Shown here: one piece after another, positions 43,212-64,000 of the stretch
How positions within the stretch are numbered: the stretch's first letter is position 1
Layout: the number at the start of each line of letters is the position of its first letter
Assembly: GCA_040954595.2 (NCBI GenBank)
Contig: CM082590.2
Span: 5,394,001-5,458,000 of the forward strand
DNA from: Balanoglossus misakiensis
Lineage: Eukaryota > Animalia > Hemichordata
DNA length: 64,000 nt
Direction: 5' to 3'
The notes under the pieces: model-generated
What the model was told of the DNA's origin: nothing
Seen by the model: only the letters and a program-made list of their open reading frames with translations
The model's database searches: none
Made by a program: the position numbers and the translations under genes

Positions 43212-43310
43212 TAGTCTCTGTTACCCAGACCCCCCTGCTTCTTCCGTTGGGCACTCCAAAAAGAGGAGAGCCCAACGGAAGAAGCAGGGGGGTCTGGGTA
43301 ACCGAGACTA
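43212..43310. mobile_element. 99-bp TIR-only derivative of the 16181 MITE family, 9-bp TSD
   Basis: TAGTCTCTGTTACCCAGACCCCCCTGCTTCTTCCGTTGGGC...GCCCAACGGAAGAAGCAGGGGGGTCTGGGTAACCGAGACTA, with GTGTGAATA at 43203-43211 and 43311-43319. Confidence 0.9.
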
Positions 43311-44562
43311 GTGTGAATATAGCATTGGCGCGCGAAGCGATCGAAACTTCCGCATTGAACGAGTCCTCCTACCCAGCGTTCCCGGATGTCATTGCCTGAG
43401 CATGCGTAGAAAATGTCGAGACAATCTGTCGCGCGACAGCGTACATGCCCGATTTGCTCGAGCGAACTAATTTTGGCTGTTCGGAGTTTTTCCACGTATT
43501 TCCTTCTAAAGTGGAGAGTGTGGTTCCGTCCGACCTCAGACATTTGCCGAGTGTGTTCAAGATTGGTTTATAAACGAACCAGATGTATTATTTGTGATTG
43601 AATTAGGCCTTTGCCCGCTGTCGCGTTGTACTCTGCTGCGCTAGCCGCCCTATATACTAGCTACAGGGAAGTGTGTTACGATGTACTGTACACAGGCACT
43701 CAAGACGATCGCTTCGCGATGGGGGGCTGCCGTTCGCAATGGGGTGGGGGTGGGGGGGGGGGGCTTCAGTACCCCTAAATATAAAAGGAGGTACGAAACG
43801 CCAGGCCAGGACAGGCCAGGATACTGACGAGAGCACAATGTTCAAGCGGGGATTTCGCTGAGAAAATTTCATTAAAACTTACCAAAATGCGGCGGGTAGA
43901 AGCTAACAAGTATATGTTTTGTGATCCATAGCAAAAAAAAACTCAATTTAAAGGCAAACTGCTCGAAATGTGGAGGTTTCGAGCGCGGTTCGAGCGACAC
44001 TTTCAACAGTGGACATTGTCGATGTCAGTATGGTCGCGGTCACTGAGGTTAGAGGTCAACTAATCGAGCCCTGGCTCCTGATTGGTCGAGAGCCTCAGTG
44101 ACGTAAATTTTGAATACGTCTTATGTTACAGGGGGTGCAGCCCTCATATTTGACTGAGAAGTCATCCATTGAAAAGCCATTCGCTCCTCGCCATCCGCCA
44201 GGACGAGTATGAAAAATTAAGTAGTGATTTGCTACGTGAATTGAATAAGTAAGAAGCGGTTTCATATCATTTGGGGGGGGGGGCCTGGTGGTGGAGCCAT
44301 TGTCAATTTTGAAGTGTTGGGTTACATCATTTTCTTATTTTTTTCGACTTGCCCTTCGGACACAGGTCAACAGCATGCCGGGAAAACCAGTAGTTTTTTC
44401 TGACAATAAAAAACACGGGACATGCACACTGGGTACTTTCACGGACACCTTTAAAAGTTCTTAAGGACTATTATTTTTCTGAAATGATGTCCCTGAAGCA
44501 CGTACTGCCTTAAATCCAGCATTACTAGTATTTCATGTTTTTCAGAGTTATGCTTATCTTTA

Positions 44563-44587
44563 CATAGACCTTTCTCTAGGGTCTATG
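44563..44587. mobile_element. 25-bp mini-element with 8-bp TIR CATAGACC and 7-bp TSD (P-superfamily-like footprint)
   Basis: ATCTTTA-CATAGACC-TTTCTCTAG-GGTCTATG-ATCTTTA. CA..TG termini with a 7-8 bp TSD are typical of the P superfamily. Confidence 0.7.
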
Positions 44588-45075: not shown

Positions 45076-46688
45076 TCAAATTTGACTTATTTTCTGAACC
45101 TTTAAAGGTTTGGGTGTAGTGAAATTAAAAGGCTGTGCCGCCCTTATACCAGCATTGGCTTTCTTAGCCGACGTACGGCTCGTTTGACTGAGCAAAACAC
45201 TGTTCACCCCCTTGGTATATTGGAGGTACGTAGGGTTGGTGTTCGAGCCGTTATGATTCGTCCTCTGCTGGCAGAAAAAGTTCTCAACGACGTCACTGTT
45301 GAGTCGACTCGGGAGTGTAGTCAGCGACTTAGCCGCCCTCTTCTCACAAATCTCGACGACTGCGGTCAGGCAGAACACAATGTCTTCACGTGTCTCATGT
45401 GACATCAGTCTTCTGGCCCTCTTGCTTTTGGTTGTTGTCTCGTCTGCCAACTCGTCTTTCTCCCACGATTGGAACCAATCTCTTGCCACGAGTAACTGCA
45501 ACAGCCTCCCATCATCACACCCTTTTACTTCCCTGTCGTCATTGAAAAATGACGCGATTTGACTGGTGTGGCGTAAGAATTCGATTGTGCCATTCAGTCG
45601 TGCCTGGCTATATCTGGATCGGGAAGACTTTGCTGGAAGCAAACCATTAGGTGGAGCATTTCACTGTCGAGGACCTGCTCAGCGAGATGGTTTCGCATTC
45701 CCGGGAAAATGTGTTCGGTTGTTAACCTGTGGTTGATTCTACACATTTCCGGGTTAACTTCTGTGTCCCACTTGTAGGCATCGCGCCAGTGTTGCCATTC
45801 AATATAAACACCATTCCATCGCAAATGCCTGGGATAGGTATCGCCTTCACCACTCTTCAGTACACTGTTCCTTAGTCTCTTAATTACATGTTTTGGATCC
45901 ATACACATTATAACGGTGTCAGAAGGACTGCAGAGGCGGTTCGGGGCGTGCATCTTTTCATCAAGTGGGTTTCCGTTGAAATTCATTTTCAGGAAAGAAC
46001 GATTTGCTGCGGCACCATCGAACATTGCTAAATCAACAGTAAAGCCCCAGTCTGTTAATTTATCAACAGCTTCCCAAAATAGAACGTAAAGATGATAGGC
46101 CTGAACTTGGCGAGTTGGAAAGTGCGCAAATAGGAAGGTGAAACCGGTAAAGCCCAGAAATTGAAATTGTAGAGTATGATTCGCAAGTACTCCTTTCTTG
46201 TATCCAGCCTTCATCACATCCATACTGGTACATTCGTCTCCGAGGTCTACATCACCAACTAGTTTACTAATGCCACCTCTGGTGTCAATCTGTAGATCCT
46301 CCTGGATGGCCATCTCATCTAGTATGATACCACCCGAGCCTCCAGATGGGAGGATGCTTTTCTCTGCAGCCGTGTCTTTCATCCACTGAAATATGTCGTC
46401 ATGAAACCCAGATTTTTTATCGATTCTGTTCTTGTACATCTGCAGACGTCTAGGGGAGGGGAGTAGAAGATGGCCGCTTTTCCTTATGTCTTCATAGCCC
46501 TGTGGCGTTCTAAGCCACAACTGTAGGCCGAATTTTATTGCATCTCTATCCCACCTTCTGCTGGTTGGTTTCACTGTGCTATTTTTAACCATCGACGAAA
46601 TCAGGCTGACTGCATTTTCTGGCAGGGTTTGCAGCACTTCACACAAACTATCACTTTTCGTTTCAGTGCCAGTCATCTTGCCAGTATC
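45076..46688 (-). pseudogene. P-element-superfamily (THAP9-like) DDE transposase, main exon, frameshifted at ~45605
   Basis: Motifs: RRW..GY..IR...LLLPSPRRL, IILDEMAIQEDL (first D), MFDGAAANR (second D), DPKHVIKRLRNS (DxxH), MRNHLAEQVL, and in the second frame RLNSDVVENFFCQQR..NGSNTNPT (catalytic E). The acceptor CTAATCTTTCTACATATTGCAG (with a CTAAT branch point) ends at 46689. Confidence 0.92.
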
Positions 46689-47386
46689 CTGCAATATGTA
46701 GAAAGATTAGGTGTTAAATTATGTTGATGTACATACTATATTAGCACATATAAAACATCGTGATTTCTCTATGGTAGTGATTTTTCTCGGCGTTTACATA
46801 TTATGTTCCATCGCCATTTGTCTTTTGTAAATTTACAAATACCATTATGGTTGTAGCGTTGCCCCCCCCCCCCCCCCCCCCCCGCCAAATGCAATAAATA
46901 AAATAAAATACGAACATACAACTTTTACTAGTATTATCTCACGGGTTTGTACGGCCGGAATTTATGGTGTAGACCCATGAACTTGAACTTTGCAGAAAAT
47001 GCACTTCAAGTTTTTTCGCTCACAAACATAACTTTCAATTTGGGTGAGAATATACATTTTCCTTCCGTGAGCGGGCGATTTTTCCTGATCTTTTGCGCCG
47101 CGGATCACGATATTCAACATGTTTGATATTTTTTTTCCTCGCGAGGAAAATTACTCAAGTCCACCGCACACGAGAGAAACTTGCTGAGCAAAATTCCTCG
47201 AATGACTTTTTGCTCAGCTTATTTCTCTCGTGTGCGGCAGCCTTTACCGATTGGCCGCGATCACATCATAACATGATCCGTTGATTACGCAGTTGATCCG
47301 TTTCCGATCTCCGTGTCCGATTCCGAGTTTTGAGCATCTATAGTATTTTAAAGATTTTTGACAAATTCACTGGACTCAAGTACACA

Positions 47387-47584
47387 ATGGATGCTATAAA
47401 CCTCTTGAATTTCGGACACAATATCCTGATAACAGGCCAAGCCGGTACAGGAAAAACTACTCTCGTCAAGAATATTCACAACCGTTATTCTGGAAAAAAG
47501 AGCATCTACGTGACAGCCTCCACTGGGATAGCAACTTTGCAGTACCCTCGGGCAATGACTGTACATGCTTGGGCAGGCTTGCGG
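47387..47584 (+). CDS. PIF1-family helicase exon 1 (Walker A, motifs Ia/Ib)
   Basis: NILITGQAGTGKTTL, VTASTGIA, TVHAWAG; donor CGG|GTAAGT. Confidence 0.9.
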
Positions 47585-47725
47585 GTAAGTTTTCATGATT
47601 GGTTTCACCAAAGCGTACTTTCGAAAGATTTCATCAAAACTGAACATGACAAAGTCCCAATGATCGCCAATGATGTCCACGGATGCGGGGGCCTCTTTGG
47701 ACAATAAAACCGATGTAAGGGTGAG

Positions 47726-49186
47726 ACTAAAACAAAGGAAAGCGAAGGACACGATTATCTGTATGCTTAAGGGCGAAGGACAGTAATATCTCCATATTTT
47801 AGGGCGAAGGACATCATTATCTCTATACGAAATGGTGAAGAACGGCATCTTTTTACTGAAGAGCGAATTTTGGACGAACAAATTCACGTGTATTTCCTCT
47901 AAGGCAGTGTTTGTTTATAACAGGTGTTTCGTGTAAACAGGACACCCTAGTTAAGATCTTGACAGTGATATCATAAACTCTGATCACATATATGACCTGG
48001 ATGTGTACTAACACAAAGTCTCCGGATGACTCATTTATTAGCCAATAACAATCTAGCTTTTATAAACTTTCCCGCCAAGATGAGCTATATAACATGTCGC
48101 TAATTCCTTTTCATTAGTACTTGTTTTGAGACCACTTTGGAGCACTTTCTGGGGATTGACTCTGAATGCATCCGGTCTTTCCACTTCTCTCATTTGAGTT
48201 GACACACTTTTCTGTAGCATACCAGCTTACGTAGCTATAGTAATGAAGTAGTAATAAAGTAGTTTGAATTGATTTGAAGTCTTCGTCTCCGCCATAGACT
48301 CTGTATACAAATCCCCAGACCACACAGACAATTCCCCCATGCACAGTTTTTTTTATTTTATTTGTCTATTCTATTCCGATGTTCAAGTGGGGTAATAAAG
48401 TACTACAAAACTATTTTCCTCCGTGGGAATGAGACAATGATGTCCTTCCGCCTAAAATATAGAAATATTACTGTCCTTCGCCATTTAGTATAGAGATAAT
48501 GTTATCCTTCGGCCTTTACCGTAGTTGCCCGGGTAAGAACCCCTGCTCGGACAAACTCCCCCCCCCCCTGGTTTTAGGGCCCATTTGTAGATCGAGGCCA
48601 TATCCGGTCTAAAGCCCCCCCCCCCCCCCCCCCGGCCGAATATCCATTAAATTCTTGGAAATTTAATAAAGTGCAATGCAAAAAAGGCGGATTTTCATCC
48701 CCAAAGTCACTAAAAGTGAAAAAAAAAATGTATGATGATTTACTTTCGCGCTGATTATCGTACCCACCGCGGCCGACTGGCCACGCTGAGTTATATATAG
48801 CCGCTCTAGAAAACATGACCTCAGACAGGTCCCTCGGGACCGTGCCTCGAATTCAACGATCACCTAGATGGACGCGCTGCCGCGTGTGAGGTCACCGGGG
48901 AGCTTTCCAAAGCGGCCGCGTGGAGCTGCTTCAGTCCGTCCTCGACGCGAAACACCCAACATTGGAAGTTACCGACTTGGACTCGGAGAATGAACCACTC
49001 AAAAATGTGCATAAAAGTCGAGGTGGCCATCCCTCATTTGCATAAATCTCGAGGCCATATCCGGGCTAAAGCCCCCCCCCCCCCCTGTTTTTTCGCTAAT
49101 CTGTTGGCCCAGCACCCGGGGCTCTTACCCGGGCAACTACGGTATTACTGAGATAATGCCGTCCCCTGCTTTCCTTCGTTTTAAGT
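47726..49186. mobile_element. TIR element with repeated GCGAAGGACA subterminal motifs, in PIF1 intron 1
   Basis: Left ACTAAAACAAAGGAAAGC plus three GCGAAGGACA (47726-47820). Inverted TGTCCTTC repeats at 48440-48512 and the right end GCTTTCCTTCGTTTTAAGT. Confidence 0.65.
48519..49142. mobile_element. Tc1/mariner-pogo-type MITE with TA TSD, nested in the previous element
   Basis: TA-CCGTAGTTGCCCGGGTAAGA ... TCTTACCCGGGCAACTACGG-TA; internal direct repeat TCGAGGCCATATCCGG.CTAAAGCCCCC at ~48592 and ~49049. Confidence 0.88.
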
Positions 49187-49251
49187 TATGTTCGATGTGA
49201 TGTCGAATCTTGTGGTTAACTTTATCCTTTTTCATAATTATTTCAATGAAG

Positions 49252-49357
49252 GATGGAATATATCTTACGCGAGTTGCTAAACACGGATCCCGCTTTTTAT
49301 GCTGCGAAGAATAGGATTTTGTCCACGGATATACTCATAATTGATGAGATATCGATG
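49252..49357 (+). CDS. PIF1-family helicase exon 2 (Walker B)
   Basis: RILSTDILIIDEISM then donor GTAAAT; frameshift near the exon start. Confidence 0.85.
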
Positions 49358-49511
49358 GTAAATATGAATATTGAAGCTTGCACTAGTTGTATTACGTTTT
49401 TATTATAAAGAGTCACAAGCTGCAAATTTTAGAGTTTTTATACACCTGCACATGTGTCGGTTTTATGATCATTTATGCATTATAAATAATATGCTGTACA
49501 TAATTCCGCAG

Positions 49512-49941
49512 ATAAGCAAGAAAATATACGAGCGAGTTGATGAAATCTGCAGAAAAATCAGAGGGTCAAGAGATTACTACGGTGGCATACAAATTGTTGC
49601 ATGTGGTGACTTCTATCAATTGCCGCCAGTAGCTAACCCACGATATGAAGACAGCAGTGAATTCTGTTTCATGTCGCACCTGTTCCGTCACCTGCATCAT
49701 ATAAACCTGCAGCAAGTACATCGACAAACAGATCCCCTTATGGTAAAAGCCGTACGAGAAACCGCCATAGGAAGTGTAAGCGAAGACACAGATAAATTGC
49801 TCAGGAGTCTCTCCCGGCCATTTCAAGATTGTGCCAGAGCAACCCATGTATTCCCAACCAATTTGGAAGTTGAAATGTTCAACGCAGAAAGACTTTTTGA
49901 AATGCCGGGAGATATGAAGACGTACGAGTCTAAAGATGAAG
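49512..49941 (+). CDS. PIF1-family helicase exon 3 (motifs III, IV)
   Basis: YGGIQIVACGDFYQLPPV, LQQVHRQTD, FPTNLEVEMFN; acceptor CCGCAG; non-canonical GC donor G|GCAAGT. Confidence 0.9.
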
Positions 49942-50308
49942 GCAAGTGAACATACGACCGTAGTTCATATCACCCCTCCCGTAACTTAAAAAACACGCAA
50001 AAGTGCATTCCAGATAAACCCCAGAAAATTAGTAACACAGTACGAAGGATGGGGAGTAAAATGACCGACATTATTTAGGAGCATTGGATGGTCGAAATAA
50101 ATATTTAGCCAAAACTTTGCAAAGTAAGCCTAATATTTGACTTGAAGACCCACGTGAGATTGATAAAACCAAATTGTTTACTTGAGTTTACGTTCGGTGG
50201 GTAGATTTTGCAACTAATTTGAATTGTCGCCCGTGTTTTCGTTTTGGTGTACTATATGAATGAAATATCGAAGATAAAATTTAAACATGTAACTGTTTTC
50301 ATTTCCAG

Positions 50309-50580
50309 GTGATAAACGATATCTCTAGTGTATTCAGATGTCAAGGCTGCTTGAAAGTTGGTGCGCCTGTAATGTTAATACGAAATCTGAGCCCGACGAT
50401 GGTAAACGGATTACAAGGTGTAGTTCGATAACGTAACCGTGTTCTTTGAAAATGGAATCGTACAAAAGGTGGAGGCCCACAATTTCGGTGTGTATTTACT
50501 TGGCCCAAAATCCACTGTGGCAAGTAGGACACAGATACCCCTCAAACTGGCATTCGCTCTTACTTTCCACAAAGCGCAAG
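50309..50580 (+). CDS. PIF1-family helicase exon 4 (degenerate; motif V)
   Basis: LKVGAPVMLIRNLSPTMVNGLQGVV and RTQIPLKLAFALTFHKAQG, with stops and frameshifts; TTTCCAG acceptor and G|GTAAAC donor. Confidence 0.88.
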
Positions 50581-50858
50581 GTAAACGGGTTTCTTATATG
50601 TGACGTACGTGTGTGAGTGTGTGTGTGTGTCTTACAGAGACCCTGGAGCGAGAGGATCTGTACGGTATGCGTGTTTCATATACTTTTACTATGAAACAGT
50701 AAGCCTTCGTTTCACCGATACAGTTGTAGCTTTATCAGCAAAACGGAAACTTGAAATTTTATCCAGTGATCTGGACAAATAGTACCGTAACGATATTTTC
50801 AAAGGACAAATTGAATTTCTTAAAGATATTTCCCTGTGCATTTATGTAGGTGGTTTAG

Positions 50859-51071
50859 GTCAGATACTTCAGCGAGTACAGGTTGATGCAAAGAAAGTGT
50901 TCCAGCCAGGACAATTAAGCGTTGGGCATGGAAGAGTGAAGTCGTCGGACGACCTCCGGGTAGTCAACTACCATAAATCGAGATGTTTACCACCCAGAAA
51001 GACCGTGTTTGATTTTTATGTAAGGAAACAACTACTTATACTGGATGACCTTTCTTGTTGTCATAAATCCG
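50859..51071 (+). CDS. PIF1-family helicase exon 5 (motif VI)
   Basis: GQILQRVQVDAKKVFQPGQLSVGHGRVKS corresponds to the F..GQ.YVALSR motif. Confidence 0.8.
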
Positions 51072-51392
51072 GTAGGTGGTTAAATAGTCAAGTTATCTGC
51101 AAAATGTATTTGCAGTCAAAAACAGACCCCGTAGCGAAATAGACAAGATGGGCGTGGACAGAAATTTTCGGCAAAGATCAAAGAAAACAACCGTGACATC
51201 GTCCAACATATGGCCTCCGTTCAGTTGGGATTGCAGTCGATGGTCAATAATCGATTTGTTTTTTCATCTGTCATTACGAAATGAAGCATGTTGCAAATGA
51301 ATCATACATTTAACACCAAAACCAAAGGTGTCATACATGTTCTTTAACAGTGTATTCGTAATTCTACCTTATCCTGAATGTTTTGTTTAAAG

Positions 51393-51539
51393 AAGATCAG
51401 ACTGAAGAAATAGATGATGATAACAAAGACCCAGGCGATGATGGCGCTATGGCAACACCCATTGTAGAAGACGGTAGTAGTGACGATGACAGTGATTTTA
51501 ATGATAAAGAACTGCAGGAAATTGACCTCCTGATGCAAG
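51393..51539 (+). CDS. Acidic linker exon 6
   Basis: EDQTEEIDDD...SSDDDSDFNDKELQEIDLLMQ; phase-1 AG acceptor and GTAATC donor. Confidence 0.6.
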
Positions 51540-51683
51540 GTAATCGAAAGCGATTTTTAGATCATAAAAATGTTACAGATTTTAGGTATTTTCGTATTGT
51601 AATATCATAAATTAGAAGAGTGCCTGGCTTCTTTTATTGTTCGACCCATATATAAAATTCATTATGGTAATTTCGTAATTCAG

Positions 51684-52947
51684 AAACTGGAGACATTCAA
51701 GTTGGCAGCCAGCAGCAATCGGTTGCTGGCGGCAGTTCCGATGACTCGCTCGGAACAACATCGAATGCTGGGCCAACTTGGAAGGATTCCGAGGCTGAAA
51801 CGCCTGCACTACAGCATAAAGCAAGCGAAATTAACGGTCGAGATGTGGTACTCAACCTCCAGTCCAAATTAACGTCGAACACAGAAAGAAGAAAAAAGAA
51901 AAGGGAAATTATGACCCGGTTGTTATTACGGGAAAACGAAGGCAAATTGCAATTTTTTTGTAATTTTATTACATCAAATATATATTGAGCAAGGTACAAT
52001 CTCTGGTAGAGCCGGACATAAAGGAGTTGACCTCTCCCCTCAAGACATATGATCGGTTTGTTAAATCCGATGAGTTCAACAATTCAGTCTGTGATCTCCT
52101 GGGACACCAACCGAACACGGACGAGTATGGCAGTGTAATGAACATTGCTGATGCACTCAGAGCAAGGGTGTTCAAACACGTAGAAGAGAAAATTCTACGG
52201 GATCAGGTAGAGAAAGTAGACATTCCGAGATCAGCGACATTCCGATCATCAGAAAGTGGGTTGGGAAAGCTGCGGTATCTGGGTGGCCGTTGTGTTGCCA
52301 AAGAAAAATATTCAGTCACTGCTGAATTGAGAAGAAATTTGTCTAGTGACCATGCTAAGTACGAGAAATGCAAAGCAACACTGGGTTTGTTAAGTATGTT
52401 AGAAGCTTCAGAGTCTGAGCTTCTCGAAACATCGTCTGAAAAATCTAGCTTGGAAGAGACAGTCAGGCGACAAAACATAAGACGGTCGCTTCAGCATATT
52501 TCTGACAATGCCTTTGACTTTTTTTGTCAAGTAGAAAGACGACGTGTGCAGTTGGAAAGCTTTGAAGCAGTCAATGTCTTTGGGGGCAAAGTTATTAGTC
52601 ACGCCGAAAATAAGTTGCTCGGTGACGTAAATTTGCAGAGTGCTTGGAAACGCCTGTTTGTTGACATAGAGTCTGGAGTAATAGTCGAATTGTTCAATGA
52701 TATTGTTCGGCGATATTTCCGCATCGCAAATAATCAATATAGGAAATCGCTGCTACATAAAATTGGTCGTGCAAAATCGTCAGCCCATCGCGTGGAAATC
52801 CAAAAAAGAAAAGCGATAAATGTCTCTACAACACAGTCAGTCACGGCCACCCAGTCGGCAAGTGCAGGACGGGTTGGGAAAGGGAAGGGCAAAGGAAAGG
52901 GTAAGGGAAAAACCATCAAGAAGAAGAGAGGGAGTTCAGAGAGCTAG
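51684..52947 (+). CDS. Exon 7: unknown helical domain plus GK-repeat basic tract
   Basis: Open frame from acceptor TTCAG|51684, an AT-slippage frameshift at ~51980, then the 320-aa ORF 51985-52947 (GKLRYLGGRCVAK..., GKGKGKGKGKG). Confidence 0.75.
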
Positions 52948-53112
52948 TGTTGCATGTGTGGGGATTCGTACGTCAGTGGAGAAGCGTGGATTCAGTGTGA
53001 TGCTTGTCTTGGGTGGCTGCACCAGGAATGTTCTGGTTTATCCCTCACTGAGTACATGGGACACGCAAATGATAGTGACCTTCCATTTAAATGTATGAGG
53101 TGTGGGGAATGA
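52948..53112 (+). CDS. C-terminal PHD finger (C4HC3), in frame after a premature TAG
   Basis: CCMCGDSYVSGEAWIQCDACLGWLHQECSGL...PFKCMRCGE*, in the same frame as the 51985-52947 ORF. Confidence 0.88.
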   Translation, partial: CCMCGDSYVSGEAWIQCDACLGWLHQECSGLSLTEYMGHANDSDLPFKCMRCGE

Positions 53113-53302
53113 ACTCCACTGTTGGTTTACATTTTGCACTGCCGATACATTTTATTTATTCACTGTATTTCATATTTTCAAGAAATTAAAGTCTTCTGTT
53201 TATGAAATGTACCATATGATCATATTAGTCTCTCCGGGATTCTACATCCACTATAGAACTATACGTAACATGCAAATCAATAATGTTCGATGCATTTGCA
53301 TT

Positions 53303-53771
53303 TAAATAATAACACATGATAGCGAGGGCAATATCACGATTTGAAGCCTGCACGAGGGATGGTGATCACCAGCCCGAGGGCAGACTTCAAATCGTGATGA
53401 TACCCGAGCATCATGTGTTATTAATTTTATTACGCCGAACATTTGAACGTACATACACTGTAGAATTGAAGAACGTAGGGTTGCGTCCATGTCGTACGTT
53501 GCTGACAATGTAAAATGTCTTGATCTCCCAAGAACTATACCTACTTCGAACTCAGATAATTTTGAGGATACTGCGCTGTTGGTTGCTATTTTGGTGTATT
53601 TACTGCCCGTTTGCAGTAAAATGTCGTCCAGTTGAACAGGTGTTAAGCCTATGTGTCGCTTTGAAGCCATAGATGCGGGAGTTGACTGATCATGGAGGAA
53701 GCCATTGAACGACAGTTTGGAACGCGCAGAAGTCGATAACGAATACGGTATAATACGTGAGGTGTAATAAT
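53303..53771 (-). mobile_element. Hairpin-ended non-autonomous element; second copy at 60340-60955 (+)
   Basis: Shares ATGGCTTCAAAGCGACACATAGGCTTAACA..GTTCAACTGGACGA.ATTTTACTGCAAACGG and both ends with the 60340 copy; hairpin at ~53308-53422. Confidence 0.85.
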
Positions 53772-53791
53772 CTATGATATGTTAGTCTTAC

Positions 53792-54130
53792 CTGTTGGGA
53801 CACTTTGTTGGTTGTTTTTTGGCTGACGTAGTCGTACGTTTTTTGGCATCTTCGGCAAGTACGGCCATAACTGGTCACAGGAAGGAGGAGGGAACAGCGA
53901 ACATCCCTGATGATCTGCTTGTAGTTACCAGCCGCAGTTTCACCGTGATTAGTCTCAACAGTAATGGTTTTGGCGAACATGATATGATCATGGCTGCGCT
54001 TGGGAACACCTGTGCAGATATGCACTCTTTGAAGAAAGACATTCATGATTTTTAGACTTTCTGTTGTAGCAGGTATGTGCTGTGGAGATCCATGTTGTTC
54101 CAACGGAACTGTTTTACCATCAACAATCAC
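53792..54130 (-). pseudogene. Upstream Cys-rich exon of the same P-type transposase (5' truncated)
   Basis: Encodes HICTGV...IRDVRCSLLLP...TCRRCQK, a pattern I recall from N-terminal regions of invertebrate P-type transposases. It ends CAG|GTAAGA in phase 0, matching the phase-0 acceptor at 46689. Confidence 0.65.
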
Positions 54131-54262
54131 TAGAGGGCGCTGTCATTTTGGATCCATATCAGAAAATGGCCGCCATGGGTCAATGCATAAGTGTACCAAG
54201 TTTCATGCTTTTAACCCAAAGTGCACAATTATACCAAAATTTGGGGTTTAGCTCCTGCACTA
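54128..54262 (-). mobile_element. Academ-like transposon terminus abutting the transposase exon
   Basis: The minus strand starts TAGTGCAGGAGCTAAA...AATTGTGCACTTTGGGTTAAAAGCATGAAACTTGGTACAC, resembling TAG-starting Academ termini as I recall them. It contains CACTAGAGGGCGC. Confidence 0.5.
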
Positions 54263-54979
54263 TAATATTGATCGCACCTGTGATGACAAATGAATTTACT
54301 CCTCTGCGGTGATAATTCTCCTGTCTAATTTCGGCCAGTAACAAAACTGGATCAGGGAAGCAGACTAAATTTTTTTTTATTCACTATTAAACTTAGATGT
54401 GCACTTTCATTGAGTGTTTTGACTAATTAAGTACAATTGACAGGCTTAAGCTTTTTATAATGATTTTAGAATCTTGCTTGGCATAAGCCTATTTATTATT
54501 CATTCAGTACACAACTTGCACTATCTTTATCCTAAAACTCTGGTAAACAATCATATCATAACTTTGGCAAGTAAACAACTCACCATACACATTTTAGATT
54601 TTATTGTAGACTGAATGAAAGTTTTAATACCCTGATCAGTTTTATCTGCTACAAATACTGATTTTGTGTCTAACGGGGTAATCTGGGGAATCTTTGGGCC
54701 TGACAACGCGTGTTATACTATTCCACTGTCTGAAAGAAAAAATCTGGAAGAAAGGCACATCAGCCTGCCTGCAGATCATGATATTAATCCAATATATTCT
54801 TTACAGCAGCTACAAATAACTAACATGTCATGCACACATTGTCTTGATGGTGTTAACAATGATATTGACAATATCTTATCCCGCTAAACAGATCAGCAAG
54901 TTCTGCAAGTTGGAACCATCAGCAGTCTACCAGGCAACCAATCCACCAGACCTGCTCAGTCAGCAAGTTTCGCCAATGC

Positions 54980-56282: not shown

Positions 56283-56410
56283 TGCATACATGGATACATA
56301 CATACAGACACTGCAGACGTAAAGACATACATATGTAAATGCATACATACAGATACATACATACAGACATACATATACATACATAGATACATACATATAC
56401 ATACATACAT
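56283..56410. repeat. Degenerate (TACA)n microsatellite
   Basis: CATA/CAGA tetramer runs. Confidence 0.9.
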
Positions 56411-56454
56411 AGTAGAGTGTGCAAGGGAACTAAGGCTGTTTTGACATAGGCGGT

Positions 56455-56502
56455 GTATTACTGTTCAGTTTCGTGTAAGCGGGGCCTACACTCGTCAGAT
56501 AC
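56455..56502 (-). ncRNA. Minimal type I hammerhead ribozyme (mirror copy)
   Basis: Exact reverse complement of 56520-56567 within the palindrome. Confidence 0.85.
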
Positions 56503-56519
56503 TGATGCCTCAGGCATCA

Positions 56520-56567
56520 GTATCTGACGAGTGTAGGCCCCGCTTACACGAAACTGAACAGTAATAC
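56520..56567 (+). ncRNA. Minimal type I hammerhead ribozyme
   Basis: GTAT-CTGACGA-GTGTAGG/CCCCG/CTTACAC-GAAA-CTG/AA/CAG-TA-ATAC: complete CUGANGA and GAAA core, stems I-III, GUA cleavage triplet. Confidence 0.85.
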
Positions 56568-56678
56568 ACCGCCTATGTCAAAACAGCTTTAGTTCCCTTG
56601 CACACTCTACTATCAAGCTCTGGATTTACACCATCGAGCACTCTGCCAGCAGTACTTGCAACGAACTCCCAAATCGTA

Positions 56679-57318: not shown

Positions 57319-58720
57319 CCTACCTGATTAATACTACCCGCCCAAATCCACTCATTATTCACTGCCTTTCAAAATTAGGCCCATTGGCATACCTATAATC
57401 TGTACCTTTTATGAGTGTCTGGATTCGCTCATCAGCAGATTAAACTGGTTACTGAGTCCAATGACTAATGAAACAACATTGTAGACAACCTGTTTCTGTT
57501 TGTATCTCTGATTCCCTACCTACCTATCTATGTCTGTCTGTCAGTCTGCCTGCTTGCCTACCCGTCGTCTGTCTTTGACTCAGGGAGAGTGATTGACAAA
57601 GAGAGGGGAAGGGGGAGGGAGGGAGAAAGAGAGAAAGAGAGCTGTTCTTTGGATATTGCGCCAACAGGAAGATGTACAGATTGACAAACACATATTGTAC
57701 TACTATTATAGTAATAATAATAATAATTATATAATTTATTTACAGAATGACAAGCATGGACAAAAGTACAAATAACTATAAATTGAGATCATAGTAAAAT
57801 GTGAATGGTCCAGAAATTAGTGTATATCCTGAATGAAGGTTTGCCCCTTTATAGTACAGGCTACTTCATGTGCTCATCATTTATGTTGGCATGGGAATTA
57901 TTAAAGACCCTTTTAACTTTTCTATTTTTATTCTTTGTTATCAGCTTTTCTATGGTTTTCCAAAAAAGACCCCTGTTATGCATTGCTGTATTGCAACCAT
58001 GGAGGAATAAAGCATACTGTTGCAAATGCTTTGAAAGTCATGAAAGTCCTGCTTCAATAATGGGATAAAATCATGAGACATTCTGAACATATTTGCAGAC
58101 TGTTTGTGCTCGATTGTGCTGTTTTGGCCTTTGTTTCGCATGTAACTGTGTTGTGCCTGCATAGCCAGTTGAAACAAAAAGGTATGAGTAGTTGCTGACA
58201 GTCTATCCACCATGTTGCAACTGTAAATTAAAGAAAAAATACCAATTTAAGCCAAAGAGGTACCAGTAATTTCTACAAAATGCAGCTAAGAAGTATAATG
58301 AAATGTACATGACTAAATGTACATGTTTTAATTTCAAGCCAAATTGTCCAACAATGATTTTCAGTAAGTTGAGAATTTACTCCAAACCCAATGTGAAATG
58401 TAGTACTTCTTTTGTAGTCATGTTCACCAGCATAAATAAAAAAGAGTGTTGATTAAAGTAACCATGAACATTATAAAAGTAAAACTTAACAAAAGTTATG
58501 AATGTAAACAAACTCGGGACAATGAATGTAAATATCAAGCATTAAACATGAATCAGATGACAAAAAGTGACAAAGTAGGCATCGCGCATGACAAAGTGGC
58601 TCTCGTGTTTACATTCATCGTGGCCATGTTGGTTTGCGTTCATAACTTCTTTTTCTGACGCTGTTTCGTTAAGAAAATGACATTGATATGCCACAAAAAC
58701 AATTGTTGATATAATATAAT

Positions 58721-58862
58721 AGCAATAACCCCTGCCTCAGTCGGGTATACACTCGATTTGGGTACAATTCGCTCGATATAGCACTCGCCTGACGGCTCGC
58801 GCTATATGTCTCGAATTGTACCCAAATCTTGTGTATACCCGCCTGCGACGAAGGTTATTGCT
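58721..58862. repeat. Isolated ~140-bp hairpin of the hairpin-ended element type
   Basis: AGCAATAACC...CGGGTATACAC.CGATTTGGGTACAATTCG / CGAATTGTACCCAAATC.TGTGTATACCCG...GGTTATTGCT, centred on GCCTGACGGC. Confidence 0.8.
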
Positions 58863-60339
58863 TAATTAATTAATGCACAATTTTTCACTTTTATGATGAG
58901 ATCACAAGACCTGGCCAATTGACCTATGCACAATTTTTCCAGAAACATTTAAATATAATCAAAAACATCAGCCAAATAGCAAAAGTTTGTATCTTTGCTA
59001 TACCCCCCCCCCCCCCAAGATTTACCCTTAATGGCAAACTTCACTGCCTTGACCACAGGGACACAGAAGTGCATGGCCAATAATTAACATATGTCACTAC
59101 GGTGTTTTCCTGTTGAAATATGAAAAATAAAATACCTTATTTTATGGAAAGCAAAACACCTTTGTCTTTGTGTTTGTCTTGTGACTACCAGAATGTTTGT
59201 TTGCATTGCCTAATGTGATATGCCCTCAGGTACCAGCCTTTGTGACCTCTGTAATGCAACATGTCCTTGTATGGACATGACACACAAGTACTTTTGTTCT
59301 GTATTGTCCAAAAACACAAGCACCACACACACCTCTATTTGTGGGCTTCTGTTAACAGAAGGATGCAGCAGATTTCCCTGGGAAATAATGTTTCAAATTG
59401 AGAAAATGTGATCTGGTCTTTATTTACCTGGCCTAAAATCAATTTATGATGAATTACAAGTTTGTCAATACTATTTTTAAAATTTTCAACCAAGGGTATG
59501 CAAAAGTTATTAAAACATTATGCTTTTTGCAATTGGAGTGATCCAACAGGTGAAAGCTACACATCAGTGAGACTTATGGGTAACCTCATTTACTGTGCAT
59601 TGATTGGCCGACAAACCCTCATGGTAATTGGCTGATAACAAATGAACAAGTAAAGTCCCTCCCACCAAAAAAACCAGGTCAGTTCTAGTTGCAAATTCTT
59701 TCCCAGGTCTATCTGAGAACAAGCAGGTCATTTCCTTCACAAGGGTACCAAGCAGACATTGCTTTGTTAAGCAAATGAGCATCTTTGTTTCAACGGCAGC
59801 CAACATCCTGTATGTAACTGATTCTCATACAAGTGGTTTGTGGGATACAGGAAGTTCGGAAGAGTATGCAAAACAGTAGGAACTGACAGACTCCCTAGAA
59901 TCACCATCAGATGAAATGTTTTCCCTTCTCAATATGCCTAAAGTTTCTGCCGTTTGCTAGCCATCATGCATGAAAACACCCTGCAAACAAATGTATGTCT
60001 TTACTTGCAATTTTATATTCCTGAGGTTTTAACCTACATTTTCTATGCACACAGGGTACTTCATGAAAGAGTAGATTCTAACAAAAATAAAGCGTTTAGG
60101 AATTTGTTAAATGCCTTTATTTAAATACTCCCAGGTTCTAGCAAAAGTATTAATGTTCCAATCTGTGTTTATTACCAAAGTGGAGAACAAGTTCCCAGAA
60201 ATTAATTATCTGGTGATAATTTCAGGTAATATGCTTTCAGATCATCTTAGCAAAATTAAAATTAATAAATGTATTTCCAAGCAGGAACATTTTTCATCAG
60301 GTGTTCATATTTTCAGGCATAGACAATACTTGTAAGGTT

Positions 60340-60955
60340 TATTATTACACTTCACATATTATGTCGTATTCGTGATTGGCTGAGATGTACTCATGTGACA
60401 TAGAGAAAAAAGTGATGTAACATGGCAAGAGTTGATAAAGCCCTGTTGATATTGCCCGCTTGGTTGTTTTGGTGGTCTGCGCGTGACTTCTGTCGTTCAA
60501 TGGCTTCCTTCACGATCAGTCAACTCTTGCATATATGGCTTCAAAGCGACACATAGGCTTAACACGTGTTCAACTGGACGATATTTTACTGCAAACGGAC
60601 AGTAAATACACCAAAATTGCAACCAACTGCACAGTATCCTCAAAACTATCTGAGATCAAAGTAGGTATATATATCTACAGTTCTTGGGAGATAAAGACAT
60701 TTTAGTTCACTGCAATGTACAATGTTCTTCTATGCTGTATGTTCAAATGTTCGGCGTAATAAAATTAATACCACAAGTTGCTCAGGCATCATCACGATTT
60801 GAACCCTGCCTTAGGGCTGGTTCTCTCTGACCACAATATTGATGATACCCTTGCCTGAGGCTCGGGCATCATCAATATTATGGTCAGAGATCACCTTCCC
60901 TCTTGAAGGCTTCAAATCGTGATGTTGCCCTCGCTATCATGTGTTATTATTTAAT
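60340..60955 (+). mobile_element. Hairpin-ended non-autonomous element (same family as 53303-53771)
   Basis: Starts ATTATTACAC, ends with a long hairpin (~60780-60950) centred on GCCTGAGGC. Confidence 0.85.
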
Positions 60956-63253
60956 TAATAAACCTTATATTTCAAACACGTCACTTGCATTTGTCTTCTA
61001 TCATCAGTCAAACTTTCACACATGGCAGTCAGAATTTGAGGAGAACCCCACAAAAGTAACGATTAAAGAATGATGCAAAAAAAGATTAACACAGATCTTC
61101 ATCACATTTTAATCAGATTGCCTGGATCTCTAACGTATCATGATCTTTTAAAACTTTGATGACCTTTTTTTGTCATGTTAACATTCCTTTTATAATCAAG
61201 AGATGAGCACTTTAGCTCAAACTTTTGAAAAGTCTTTTAATAGTTGGAATAGTTGGGCCACACTTTATGAGCACATATGGTGTCTTGATTTTTTATAAAT
61301 TGACAAGTCAAAATGACAAAAGATAATGCATAAAATGACAGCTGACCAGAGACTTATGGTTGAAATTTCATCTACTTTGTATGAAGAAAAGAAGGAATTC
61401 TTCTGCATGTGTAAGTAAATGATTGTAATTTAAGTATGGGCATGTGTACATGTATGATATGTTACTGAATATCACTTAGAATCAAATATTTTGAGGGGCA
61501 AACTGTGTTGAGCATTTAGACTTGTTTGGGTATGAAATGAGGGGGGGGGGTGGTTATCAGCTTTGGTTGCCAATGAGAAGATTACAGGGACTCTATTGTA
61601 ATTTCCAACTACTTTTTGCTCTAAGTACCAACCACACTATCTGTTCCTCTCTATAGAATCATTGAAAATGTCCAGTTTTCTCATGTCAACAAGTCATGCA
61701 TAAGCGCGACAACCATTGTTATTGTGGACAAATGCATCAAATTCTGTACTTTGGTATACAGAAAAATAGCTAAAACTTACAGATATTACAGTTTTAACTT
61801 GTACCGGTATATGGAACTCATACCACTCTCACTGACATGTGAACAAGTTCTTCCAGATCAGAGCTATTTTGCCACAGAGCCGTCAGTGTCTACACTTCTG
61901 CAATGTGTTTGTTTTCTGAGACATTTTATTATTATAAATTAATTTTAACTGCATTAATACTTCATATTTTTTTATAATAAAAACTACCTGAAGGAAGCAT
62001 TGACATAAATCTGTGTCCCTTTCCATGGAGTAAAGTTGGACTTGAGGGGTCCTACATTTTCAGATGGGGTGTGCAATTTTGATACTTCAGCTTCCTCTTT
62101 GTTTTTAAATTGATACAAATGATATACTTTAAGTTTCCTACATTAGAAAGTTGTCTTCACACATGTACTGGGGTATATATAGTGAAACTACACCAAGCTA
62201 GAAGTCATTTGCTCAAAAATTTTGGCAGAAGAAGGGTGTCCTTGTGTCTGAAGAGCTATTGGTCTTGGGTCTCCATATTGCCTCCAGAAGACTATTTGGC
62301 TAACCAGGTAAGCCTTCAAATGTTGATGATGATAACTTTAGAGTCATGTATAATATGCACACCACAACCAAGTGTTTTATGTTTCTTATAGTTTTGATCA
62401 CTAAACGATTGTTTTTATCAAGCACCATCTATTAGTGATATTTCCAGCTTTGAAATTATTGGAAAATTGCAGGGGGGGGGCACTGATTAAATATCATAAG
62501 ATTAGAGGCACTTGAGCTGCAACTTTTGGGATTATTATGTATTATAAACCCTAAGTATGAGTGCATATGTAAGTTTTAACCAGATAAATAATAAAGCTTT
62601 GCCACAAAGGAATATGGCCGGCCTCTTGGGAAAATGCAAAAAATGTTGCATTCCCAATCATAAAACTTCATTGACAAAGCATAATCTCGTCCACTAGAAC
62701 TCATGGAAGTAAATGCACTCCGCTGAGACATTACATTTTTATTTTGCATTGCATTTTTTAAAATTACAGGAATTTTTGGTATACTTGGAATTTTGATACA
62801 ATATCATTAAATAAACATAATTAAAAGCATTACTGAGATTATTTAAAGATTAATTTTTTTATCCAGTTGCACCTCATGGCATTTTAAGGGAACAAAGTCG
62901 CTATCAATTTCCCAGGCAACATGTCTTATTTTAATAATAAGATGATCGATTGTTGGTTTGCAAAGTATATTCACTTAAAAGTAACATTTTGTCAAAGATT
63001 ATTTTTGTTTTTATTCAAAAGAATGAATATTGTAAGGTAAATAGATAGGAACACAATGACTTACCTGCACCATTCTTTCACACAGTGCGTCGCAATAAGA
63101 ATAGGCTAGTCCCCTGCAAAGAAAGAGTGATAGTTACCTTGTGAATTGTACTACATTTGGTTTTAATGTTGCCAAGTTTGTCTCTTGACCCAGTTGCTAC
63201 TTACATTATTTTTGTGTACTTAATTATGATTCCTTCTTGTTTCAGTGTGAGAA

Positions 63254-64000
63254 ATGCGTGGGAAAAAGCGAAAATTGGATGACAAACATCAAGTCAACAT
63301 TACAGGTAAAGGAAATTCATTGTATAATGGCATGGCATTACTATCAAACCATATATTCCCTAATGATAATTCATGAATATGTTGTAGCAAAACATTTTAA
63401 AAAATAAACTTTTGCAACCATTCTTGTCTCAGCGGCTTACACTAATAATGCTTCAACTGAACAATTCATCAGAATCTAAATTGATTATCGCTAGTTCTTT
63501 TCACTATAAGAAAACAAATTGACCCATTTCAGCTCCCAAAAGAGGGAAGATAAAGCCACAACTTTACTGCAAGTGTCAAAAACCAAATGACAAAAATAAA
63601 CCCATGATTGGTTGTGATGGATGTGATAACTGGTTCCATCCAAGATGTGTAGGAACAACCATGAAAGATGTAAAGAAGATCAAAACATATTTTTGTCCTG
63701 ATTGCACAAAAATGCAAGAAAAACGCACAGAGAAAACCACAAAAATGAGTTGTGAACATCCCAAAACCAATACTTCTGATGAAAAAATTACAAACGATAT
63801 CCCTCAAACAAAAACGGCAGAAAACAAGACAGAAAACAGAGAAAATAGCTGTGAAGCAGTACATCCTAATCCCATGAAATCAGAGCCCTTTGGAAGAAGT
63901 GGTTTTTCTATGATCATCGATTGCCAATTTACCTATGCAGGATGTGATGGAAAAATAAAGGGACTGTTGCAAGGACAGGATAGTACCACATTCACAGATA
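63254..64000 (+). CDS. PHD-finger protein, 5' part (coding exons 63254-63305 and 63533 to beyond 64000)
   Basis: MRGKKRKLDD...NIT|APKRGKIKPQLYCKCQKPNDKNKPMIGCDGCDNWFHPRCVG...YFCPDC. Phase-1 G|GTAAAG donor and TTTCAG acceptor; the frame stays open to the window end. Confidence 0.8.

Follow-up and report, generated by a model that had tools for sequence, protein, structure and literature searches.

A 64,000-nucleotide stretch of the genome of the hemichordate Balanoglossus misakiensis (assembly GCA_040954595.2, contig CM082590.2, positions 5,394,001 to 5,458,000, forward strand; hereafter the window) was analysed. This eukaryotic DNA, with a GC content of about 39%, contains the remains of a transposon assigned by its sequence to the P superfamily, with two genes on opposite strands. 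A transposase gene lies on the minus strand, and a PIF1 helicase gene lies antisense within its intron. The parts of the transposase gene are as follows.

The transposase gene

45076..46688, minus strand: transposase exon 2, with helix-turn-helix (HTH), RNase H (DE..D..DxxH..E) and GTP-binding-type insertion; ends without a C-terminal domain
46689..53791, minus strand: transposase intron, phase 0, 7.1 kb, containing the helicase gene
53792..54130, minus strand: transposase upstream exon, Cys-rich domain, truncated on its 5' side; profile positions 139-244, E 6.3e-11; donor site

Exon 2 matches the Pfam family TNP-like_RNaseH_N (PF21787, E 7.7e-11). Fourteen full-length homologues of 671-841 amino acids, two of them from Ptychodera flava, show 38-45% identity to the window transposase, and their profile matches the P transposase structure 6P5A in the PDB (E 6.3e-8). 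The profile is found in the window in exactly three pieces, at positions 139-244 (54142-53693), 259-607 and 611-785; after the upstream exon, exon 2 picks up at profile position 259. The predicted splice pair between the two exons is phase 0, with donor CAG/GTAAGA at 53792 and acceptor TTGCAG/GAT at 46688. Profile positions 1-138, corresponding to an RFX-like domain, are missing in the window, where a high-copy repeat cuts the gene from 54128. The N-terminus of the homologues is an RFX-like winged helix (RFX5 structure, E 0.0026; Pfam RFX_DNA_binding in 2 of 14), and no THAP domain was matched by Pfam in any of the 14. At E<=1, PF21787 was detected in all 14 homologues, PF21788 in four and PF21789 in three. 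The catalytic D, D, DxxH and E are kept in all 25 aligned transposase rows.

An earlier note, made from the letters of this DNA, had proposed two minus-strand transposase exons with phase-matched splice signals, and the splice pair, profile and Pfam matches agree with it. Its label "P/THAP9-like" holds for the P-type core (6P5A, PF21787) and fails for the N-terminus, which is RFX-like instead of THAP.

The helicase gene

The region between the helicase core and the PHD finger contains a domain that we refer to as domain X. The gene is laid out as follows.

47387..47584, plus strand: helicase exon 1, with ATG, Walker A and motif Ia
49252..49357, plus strand: helicase exon 2, with Walker B; frameshift near its start
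49512..49941, plus strand: helicase exon 3, with motifs III and IV; GC donor
50309..50580, plus strand: helicase exon 4, with 2B domain and motif V; frameshifts and stops
50859..51071, plus strand: helicase exon 5, with motif VI and a CC end of the helicase core
51393..51539, plus strand: helicase exon 6, an acidic linker; homologues have the same acidic tract
51684..51941, plus strand: helicase exon 7, putative boundaries
52010..53112, plus strand: helicase exon 8, putative start; helical region, domain like the P-transposase C-terminal domain, Gly/Lys tract and PHD finger
52240..52780 (approximate limits), plus strand: domain X core, KLRYLGG ... RRQN ... FDFF ... NQYR, from the alignment; predicted homologue of the P-transposase C-terminal domain

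The eight exons are bounded by GT/GC-AG splice sites, those at the exon 7/8 boundaries being putative. Pfam analysis gave two PIF1 matches (E 1.2e-10 and 1.3e-12), and the helicase motifs read GQAGTGKT (Walker A), IIDE (Walker B), GDFYQLPP (III), HRQ (IV) and HKAQG (V), with VGHGRVK at motif VI. The PHD finger, at 52948-53109, lies downstream of a stop codon at 52945 in this copy. The plus-strand, multi-exon PIF1 helicase-PHD gene that the earlier note had placed between the transposase exons is therefore borne out. Proteins with the order PIF1, domain X and PHD finger are also present in Pinctada, Mytilus and Crassostrea records.

Linkage of the two genes across relatives

A scan of metagenome contigs yielded 132 confirmed transposase relatives, the best 80 of which were analysed as loci (numbered with the prefix L); these were picked by transposase motifs, and helicase genes without a transposase fall outside the counts. 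Pieces of the helicase gene were detected in 38 of the 80 loci, and all 99 piece matches were antisense to the transposase. Most of the 42 loci without helicase pieces are short; where the transposase end was reached and followed by at least 1 kb of downstream sequence, the helicase was present in 28 of 31 loci (21 of 23 clusters at 90% identity). Among viral contigs, none of the 42 pattern matches was a relative.

In L006, L009 and L021, both genes lie between terminal inverted repeats (TIRs) about 120-260 bp long, the TIR tips of L006 and L021 being cut by contig ends. L009, the only locus with both flanks, has the ends CACAGG...CCTGTG and a perfect 8-bp duplication on its flanks. The CA...TG termini of the P superfamily are thus present in L009, and the left end in the window, at 43691, likewise reads CACAGG; the target-site duplication (TSD) of L009 is within the 7-8 bp of the superfamily. 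An 8-bp TSD is given as a hallmark of P elements (PMC7776569).

Trees of the two genes were compared for the 15 of 26 cluster representatives having at least 400 helicase columns, with the 11 having fewer omitted. Eight of 12 splits are common to the transposase and helicase trees (relabelled null: mean 0.23, maximum 4 in 5000), and patristic distances give a rho of 0.79. The conflicts involve splits with support of at most 86 in the transposase tree and at most 50 in the helicase tree. The loci covering Walker A, Walker B and motifs III-V retain them, which argues that the helicase ATPase is under selection and does not indicate the step at which it acts. With domain X alone, 1532 protein clusters are matched at E<=0.001, of which 865 remain at E<=1e-10, and the lineage is therefore large.

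Domain X and the proposed split of the transposase

All 14 full-length transposases stop 48-85 amino acids past the catalytic Glu, and the motif Y[IVL][ASG]G was found in the transposase tail of none of the 25 aligned rows. Domain X carries the motif K-I-R-Y-I-x-G, which we took to resemble the C-terminal domain of P transposase; the resemblance was then tested by fold comparison. A model of domain X from the L016 orthologue, with a predicted local distance difference test score (pLDDT) of 84.6, was compared with 48,161 chains. The top match was 6p5a_B, with Z 10.8, a root-mean-square deviation (rmsd) of 3.0 and 118 of 118 residues aligned; it was the only match with Z>=8, the next having Z 7.0. 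This chain resolves the P-transposase C-terminal domain as residues 617-734. The L016 domain X core alone (232 residues) matched 6p5a_B with Z 10.2, rmsd 3.1 and 118 residues aligned. In Drosophila, P transposase has a helical C-terminal domain after the catalytic Glu (PMC7776569). Judged from these models, domain X is very probably homologous to that domain. What the earlier note had missed is that the helicase protein is predicted to contain the transposase's own C-terminal domain.

Among the top 150 proteins with domain X, 38 of the 39 with at least 250 amino acids upstream carry PIF1 there. The exception, P0127 (574 amino acids), lacks a catalytic core and joins the transposase-type RFX-like and Cys-rich N-terminus straight to domain X, and this fusion ties domain X to the transposase architecture. 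P0127 itself may be a repressor-like protein or a partner protein of a related layout. Of the top 150, which include many fragments, 63 end in a PHD finger. The transposase and domain X reading frames of L016 are both open. A complex prediction for the transposase core with domain X, in which alignments were not used, gave no answer (score 0.00), and the ESM Atlas did not name domain X (best 0.85, under the lead threshold).

Residues 351-422 of the L016 model form a small helical domain after domain X, similar in fold to the N-terminus of Rho and the C-terminus of T4 endonuclease VII, with Z 5.6-5.7, below the reliable range. This small domain is absent from the window and from L006.

Gene layouts and the probable origin of the nesting

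In 28 of the 38 linked loci, the two genes are arranged tail-to-tail. In three (L001, L009 and L016) the transposase occupies a helicase intron and is flanked on either side by helicase exons, and seven more probably have this layout. Two different introns are occupied, after motif VI in L001 and L009 and earlier in L016. The layout of the window, with the helicase in the transposase linker, was observed in none of the 24 linker-spanning loci, where no gap exceeds 854 bp, versus 7.1 kb in the window. At the linker position where the window has the helicase, the intron is short (about 240-320 bp) and empty in the closest relatives, L003, L006 and L007. Both trees group the window with L006, whose genes are tail-to-tail (support 100 and 90). 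Because its sister is tail-to-tail and these introns are empty, the helicase appears to have moved into a pre-existing small intron in the window family; on this sequence comparison, the nested layout of the family is derived and not a trait of the lineage.

The helicase gene would have entered the older small intron, probably via duplication of the element (for example, insertion into its own copy) and loss of redundant blocks, and the reverse nesting in other branches would come from the same process of duplication and loss. We infer that both nested layouts are adjacent-block swaps of the tail-to-tail order, the outcome expected if a dimer, tandem or self-inserted, formed and then underwent loss. 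The three gene layouts offer a rare natural series for the origin of nested genes.

L004 (positions 1-1845), which has the transposase closest to that of the window (about 50% identity), has its acceptor at the corresponding position, with no upstream exon in the adjoining 1.8 kb. It is a candidate for a second large intron; no helicase piece was detected in its 1.8-kb stretch.

The earlier note had envisaged a lineage of P-superfamily transposons with two genes, the second encoding a PIF1-PHD protein on the other strand, and the linked loci, the TIRs around both genes and the congruent trees uphold it. It had suggested looking for shared TIRs and TSDs, which were found in three loci and one locus, respectively, and comparing the two phylogenies, which agree. 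It had also expected PIF1-PHD copies to lie consistently antisense within the same transposase intron: the antisense orientation proved general, and the shared intron did not, so that nesting of the helicase in the intron as the design of the lineage is not sustained.

Condition, ends and insertions of the window copy

The copy in the window is, by its sequence, dead and 5'-truncated, with frameshifts and stops in both genes and the 5' part of the transposase gone. Transposase exon 2 carries a frameshift near 45600-45660 and has lost 12 bp at 45695. Further features of the copy are listed below.

43691..43730, plus strand: probable left terminus CACAGG..., the element's 3' end with respect to the transposase; the window contains no TIR that pairs with it
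48517..49142, no strand assigned: MITE-like (miniature inverted-repeat transposable element) insertion in helicase intron 1, with 27-bp inverted ends; absent from other contigs (joint 48516>49143, X1 and X2)
53297..53770, no strand assigned: high-copy MITE-like insertion separating the helicase 3' end from the transposase donor; inverted second copy at 60341-60957; joint 53296>53771 in X1
54128..54282, minus strand: high-copy repeat piece ending in CCTGTG, where the 5' exon with the RFX-like domain and the element's own right end would be expected; loose contig ends lie at 54128

Runs X1 and X2 provide contigs of one other sample, and none of the listed contigs spans the whole element. These contigs are without the insertions 48517-49142 and 53297-53770, have 12 additional bases at 45695 and carry another base in the stop at 52945; less decayed relatives therefore exist. 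With the joint 53296>53771, one X1 contig represents a different copy or allele in which the helicase 3' region adjoins the upstream transposase exon; in X2, a contig continues from transposase exon 2 into the intron (46419-47031). Contig depth is similar over both genes and above that of the flanks (about 180-350 versus 53-81 in X1), where depth is not copy number and the three runs represent one sample.

Seven contigs diverge from the window sequence exactly before 43691, where CACAGG starts (agreement 0.47). The first six bases of this terminus are those of the L009 TIR, with a single match in the window, and the element probably extends left to this position. TIR and TSD scans around the whole element found no matching right end within the window. 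The CCTGTG end at 54282 was considered as the right partner of 43691 and rejected: it is P-like, but only six bases match and a TSD is absent. Within the left part, 44563-44587 is a 25-bp mini element with CATAGAC...GTCTATG ends and a perfect 7-bp duplication, resembling a minimal P-like MITE or a footprint.

Proposed mechanism and alternatives

We consider it reasonably probable, on the predicted fold of domain X, that the element encodes a split, helicase-assisted P transposase: a transposase lacking its C-terminal domain and an antisense PIF1-X-PHD protein carrying the missing part, likely acting in one cut-and-paste complex. Domain X, supplied in trans, would dock the PIF1 helicase on the transposase complex and its DNAs. 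ATP-driven unwinding by the docked helicase would assist in opening the target or the long TIR ends, and in taking the strand-transfer complex apart. The PHD finger would read chromatin, and end binding, in place of THAP, is likely the role of the RFX-like N-terminus.

Several observations weigh against this proposal. The match to the C-terminal domain rests on one protein, L016, the source of both models, at 12-13% identity; the fold is helical, and the fold-comparison tool warns that Z below about 13 may reflect a common arrangement. Foldseek on both L016 models gave no match to the C-terminal domain, a PDB sequence search with the domain X profile gave no matches at E<=10, and Pfam analysis of 14 domain X rows did not name the domain. 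As to linkage, three of the 31 informative loci (L017, L040 and L068) have no helicase within 1.4-1.9 kb, a single TSD was observed (L009), and a plain Mantel test on all 26 representatives is weak (rho 0.24, with 47 of 2000 permutations as high). Kinship of the hosts can also produce trees that are alike.

In the explanation suggested by the earlier note, the helicase is an accessory acting after excision or integration and no subunit of the transpososome. Domain X would hold it on the element DNA or at the break, and templated gap repair powered by PIF1 would restore the donor copy and raise copy number. We regard this as a possible but rather unlikely alternative. Pif1 helicases support D-loop-driven repair synthesis, which counts in its favour. 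All linkage evidence fits it equally well, and a host helicase takes part in the repair of the P-element donor break, which proceeds through either end joining or homologous recombination (PMC7776569). It leaves unexplained why every transposase of the lineage is without a C-terminal domain while the partner has its predicted fold, and in Drosophila this domain is a structural part of the strand-transfer complex (PMC7776569). A motor incidental to catalysis, with domain X alone needed as a C-terminal domain in trans and PIF1 and PHD serving target choice, for example of open chromatin, forks or G-rich DNA, is less likely still. P0127, which has domain X without a helicase, and the frequency of terminal PHD fingers among the domain X proteins, many of them fragments, speak for it, as does the preference of P elements for promoters and replication origins (PMC7776569); the conserved Walker A, Walker B and motifs III-V, marking a selected ATPase, speak against it.

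The remaining two explanations concern the layout. That the nested antisense architecture, which the earlier note had ascribed to the lineage, is its functional design, for example for mutual transcriptional control, is very improbable: it is largely refuted by the linker-spanning loci, none of which has it, by the prevalence of the tail-to-tail order and by the tail-to-tail sister L006, even though nesting arose at least three times (the window, L001/L009 and L016) and another contig joins the helicase 3' region to the upstream transposase exon, so that the layout is not unique to the window copy. Least credible of all is a one-off insertion of an independent helicase element, either a Helitron fragment or a host PIF1 gene, into the intron of a P transposase. 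In its favour, no other locus seen has the layout of the window, and Helitrons typically encode PIF1 (PMC8788227). Around the window helicase, however, no termini or TSD of its own, which the earlier note had named as evidence for such an insertion, were found. The protein has no Rep domain and begins at the helicase core, its start lying no more than about 0.2-0.5 kb from the TIR in L006, L009 and L021; linkage and trees show long co-residence, which refutes a one-off insertion unless the contigs are misassembled.

The split, helicase-assisted transposase would have wider consequences. Disassembly of P-type strand-transfer complexes is described as uninvestigated (PMC7776569), and a natural split with the C-terminal domain on a PIF1 motor offers a direct way to ask which step of transposition needs a helicase; it also bears on why several DNA-transposon lineages carry helicases. 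L016 is an example of an intact candidate for a 9-12 kb two-component vector. Many proteins annotated as "ATP-dependent DNA helicase PIF1" in molluscs, coral-like animals and hemichordates are probably encoded by transposons of this lineage and not by Helitrons or the host itself. We see an even chance that the whole constitutes a large, old and undescribed branch of the P superfamily, with the transposase split into two obligate subunits, a PIF1 motor and PHD finger on the DNA-gripping C-terminal half, and antisense genes repeatedly shuffled into each other's introns in both directions.

Neighbouring sequence

Positions 1-40600 of the window consist of a large block of degenerate tandem and interleaved repeats, with units of about 475 bp, about 750 bp and longer, 80-96% identical and without long open reading frames. 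At 43212-43310 lies an element of 99 bp, palindromic and present in very high copy, that ends in TAG...CTA and has a perfect 9-bp duplication. We take its terminal motif to be AcademH-type, and the element may be an AcademH-type MITE. AcademH TSDs are 9-10 bp (PMC10045372). On the other side of the transposon are a near-perfect 205-bp palindrome (56409-56613), a very high-copy 190-bp hairpin element (58698-58885) and, outside the element, a separate PHD-finger exon at about 63550-63750 on the plus strand (YCKC...MIGCDGCDNWFHPRC...CPDC).

Comparison with known systems

By its catalytic core, ends and TSD, the lineage belongs, at the level of sequence, to the P superfamily, and it is not canonical P/THAP9, having no THAP, no fused C-terminal domain and two genes. 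With the Drosophila P, THAP9 and Pdre transposases (6P5A; PMC7776569) it shares the HTH, the split RNase H, the GTP-binding-type insertion, DxxH and the CA...TG termini, as well as an 8-bp TSD (in one relative) and transposase introns, with the C-terminal domain fold predicted in the partner protein. Further characters of the P superfamily are GTP dependence and 17-nt staggered cleavage. Drosophila P and THAP9 have one gene and a THAP N-terminus, whereas two antisense genes and an RFX-like plus Cys-rich N-terminus are found here. The C-terminal domain, on the transposase in Drosophila P, is absent from the transposase here, its predicted fold being fused to PIF1 and PHD. The TIRs of about 120-260 bp contrast with 31 or 13 bp in P/THAP9-type elements, and the elements here are 9-12 kb long.

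The best Pfam family of the partner is PIF1 (E 2.4e-30, for the member shown), with DEAD at 6.9e-5, under the cut-off. PIF1 is a superfamily 1 helicase. AcademH and KolobokH/Kolobok-1_CCri are likewise TIR elements with a DDE transposase and a helicase (PMC10045372, PMC9587614, PMC10799480), and the Kolobok-1_CCri helicase is on the complementary strand, as here. Their helicases are RecQ or other superfamily 2 proteins, in contrast to PIF1 here, and their transposase superfamilies and TSD lengths differ (PMC9587614, PMC10045372, PMC10799480); judged from the available published descriptions, no transposase domain is reported to have moved onto the helicase. Membership of AcademH/KolobokH was rejected on the PIF1 helicase, which is not superfamily 2 RecQ-like, and the P-like transposase.

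Helitron RepHel proteins also contain a transposon-encoded PIF1-family helicase (PMC8788227). Unlike in Helitrons, there is no HUH Rep here, and the partner is a DDE transposase with TIRs and a TSD. No Rep family is among the Pfam matches listed for the partner proteins, and full-length partners start at the helicase core, with little room before the TIR; Helitron membership was rejected, there being no HUH Rep upstream of PIF1.

PIF/Harbinger elements are, like this one, two-protein TIR elements needing a second protein, but in them the available descriptions give a partner without a helicase that is not a split-off transposase domain, and the transposase is unrelated. ProtoRAG, related to RAG1-RAG2, is a two-gene, tail-to-tail TIR element, and RAG2 ends in a PHD finger. 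Its partner has no helicase and is not a split-off transposase domain, and its transposase family is unrelated. Transposons with PIF1 domains are reported from pearl oyster, without this pairing in the available part of the report (PMC9646362). No description of a P element with PIF1 was found in the literature; Repbase, Dfam and Repbase-derived supplements lay outside the search, and a catalogue entry is quite possible. To the layouts seen in its relatives, the window adds a third, together with evidence for its derived origin.

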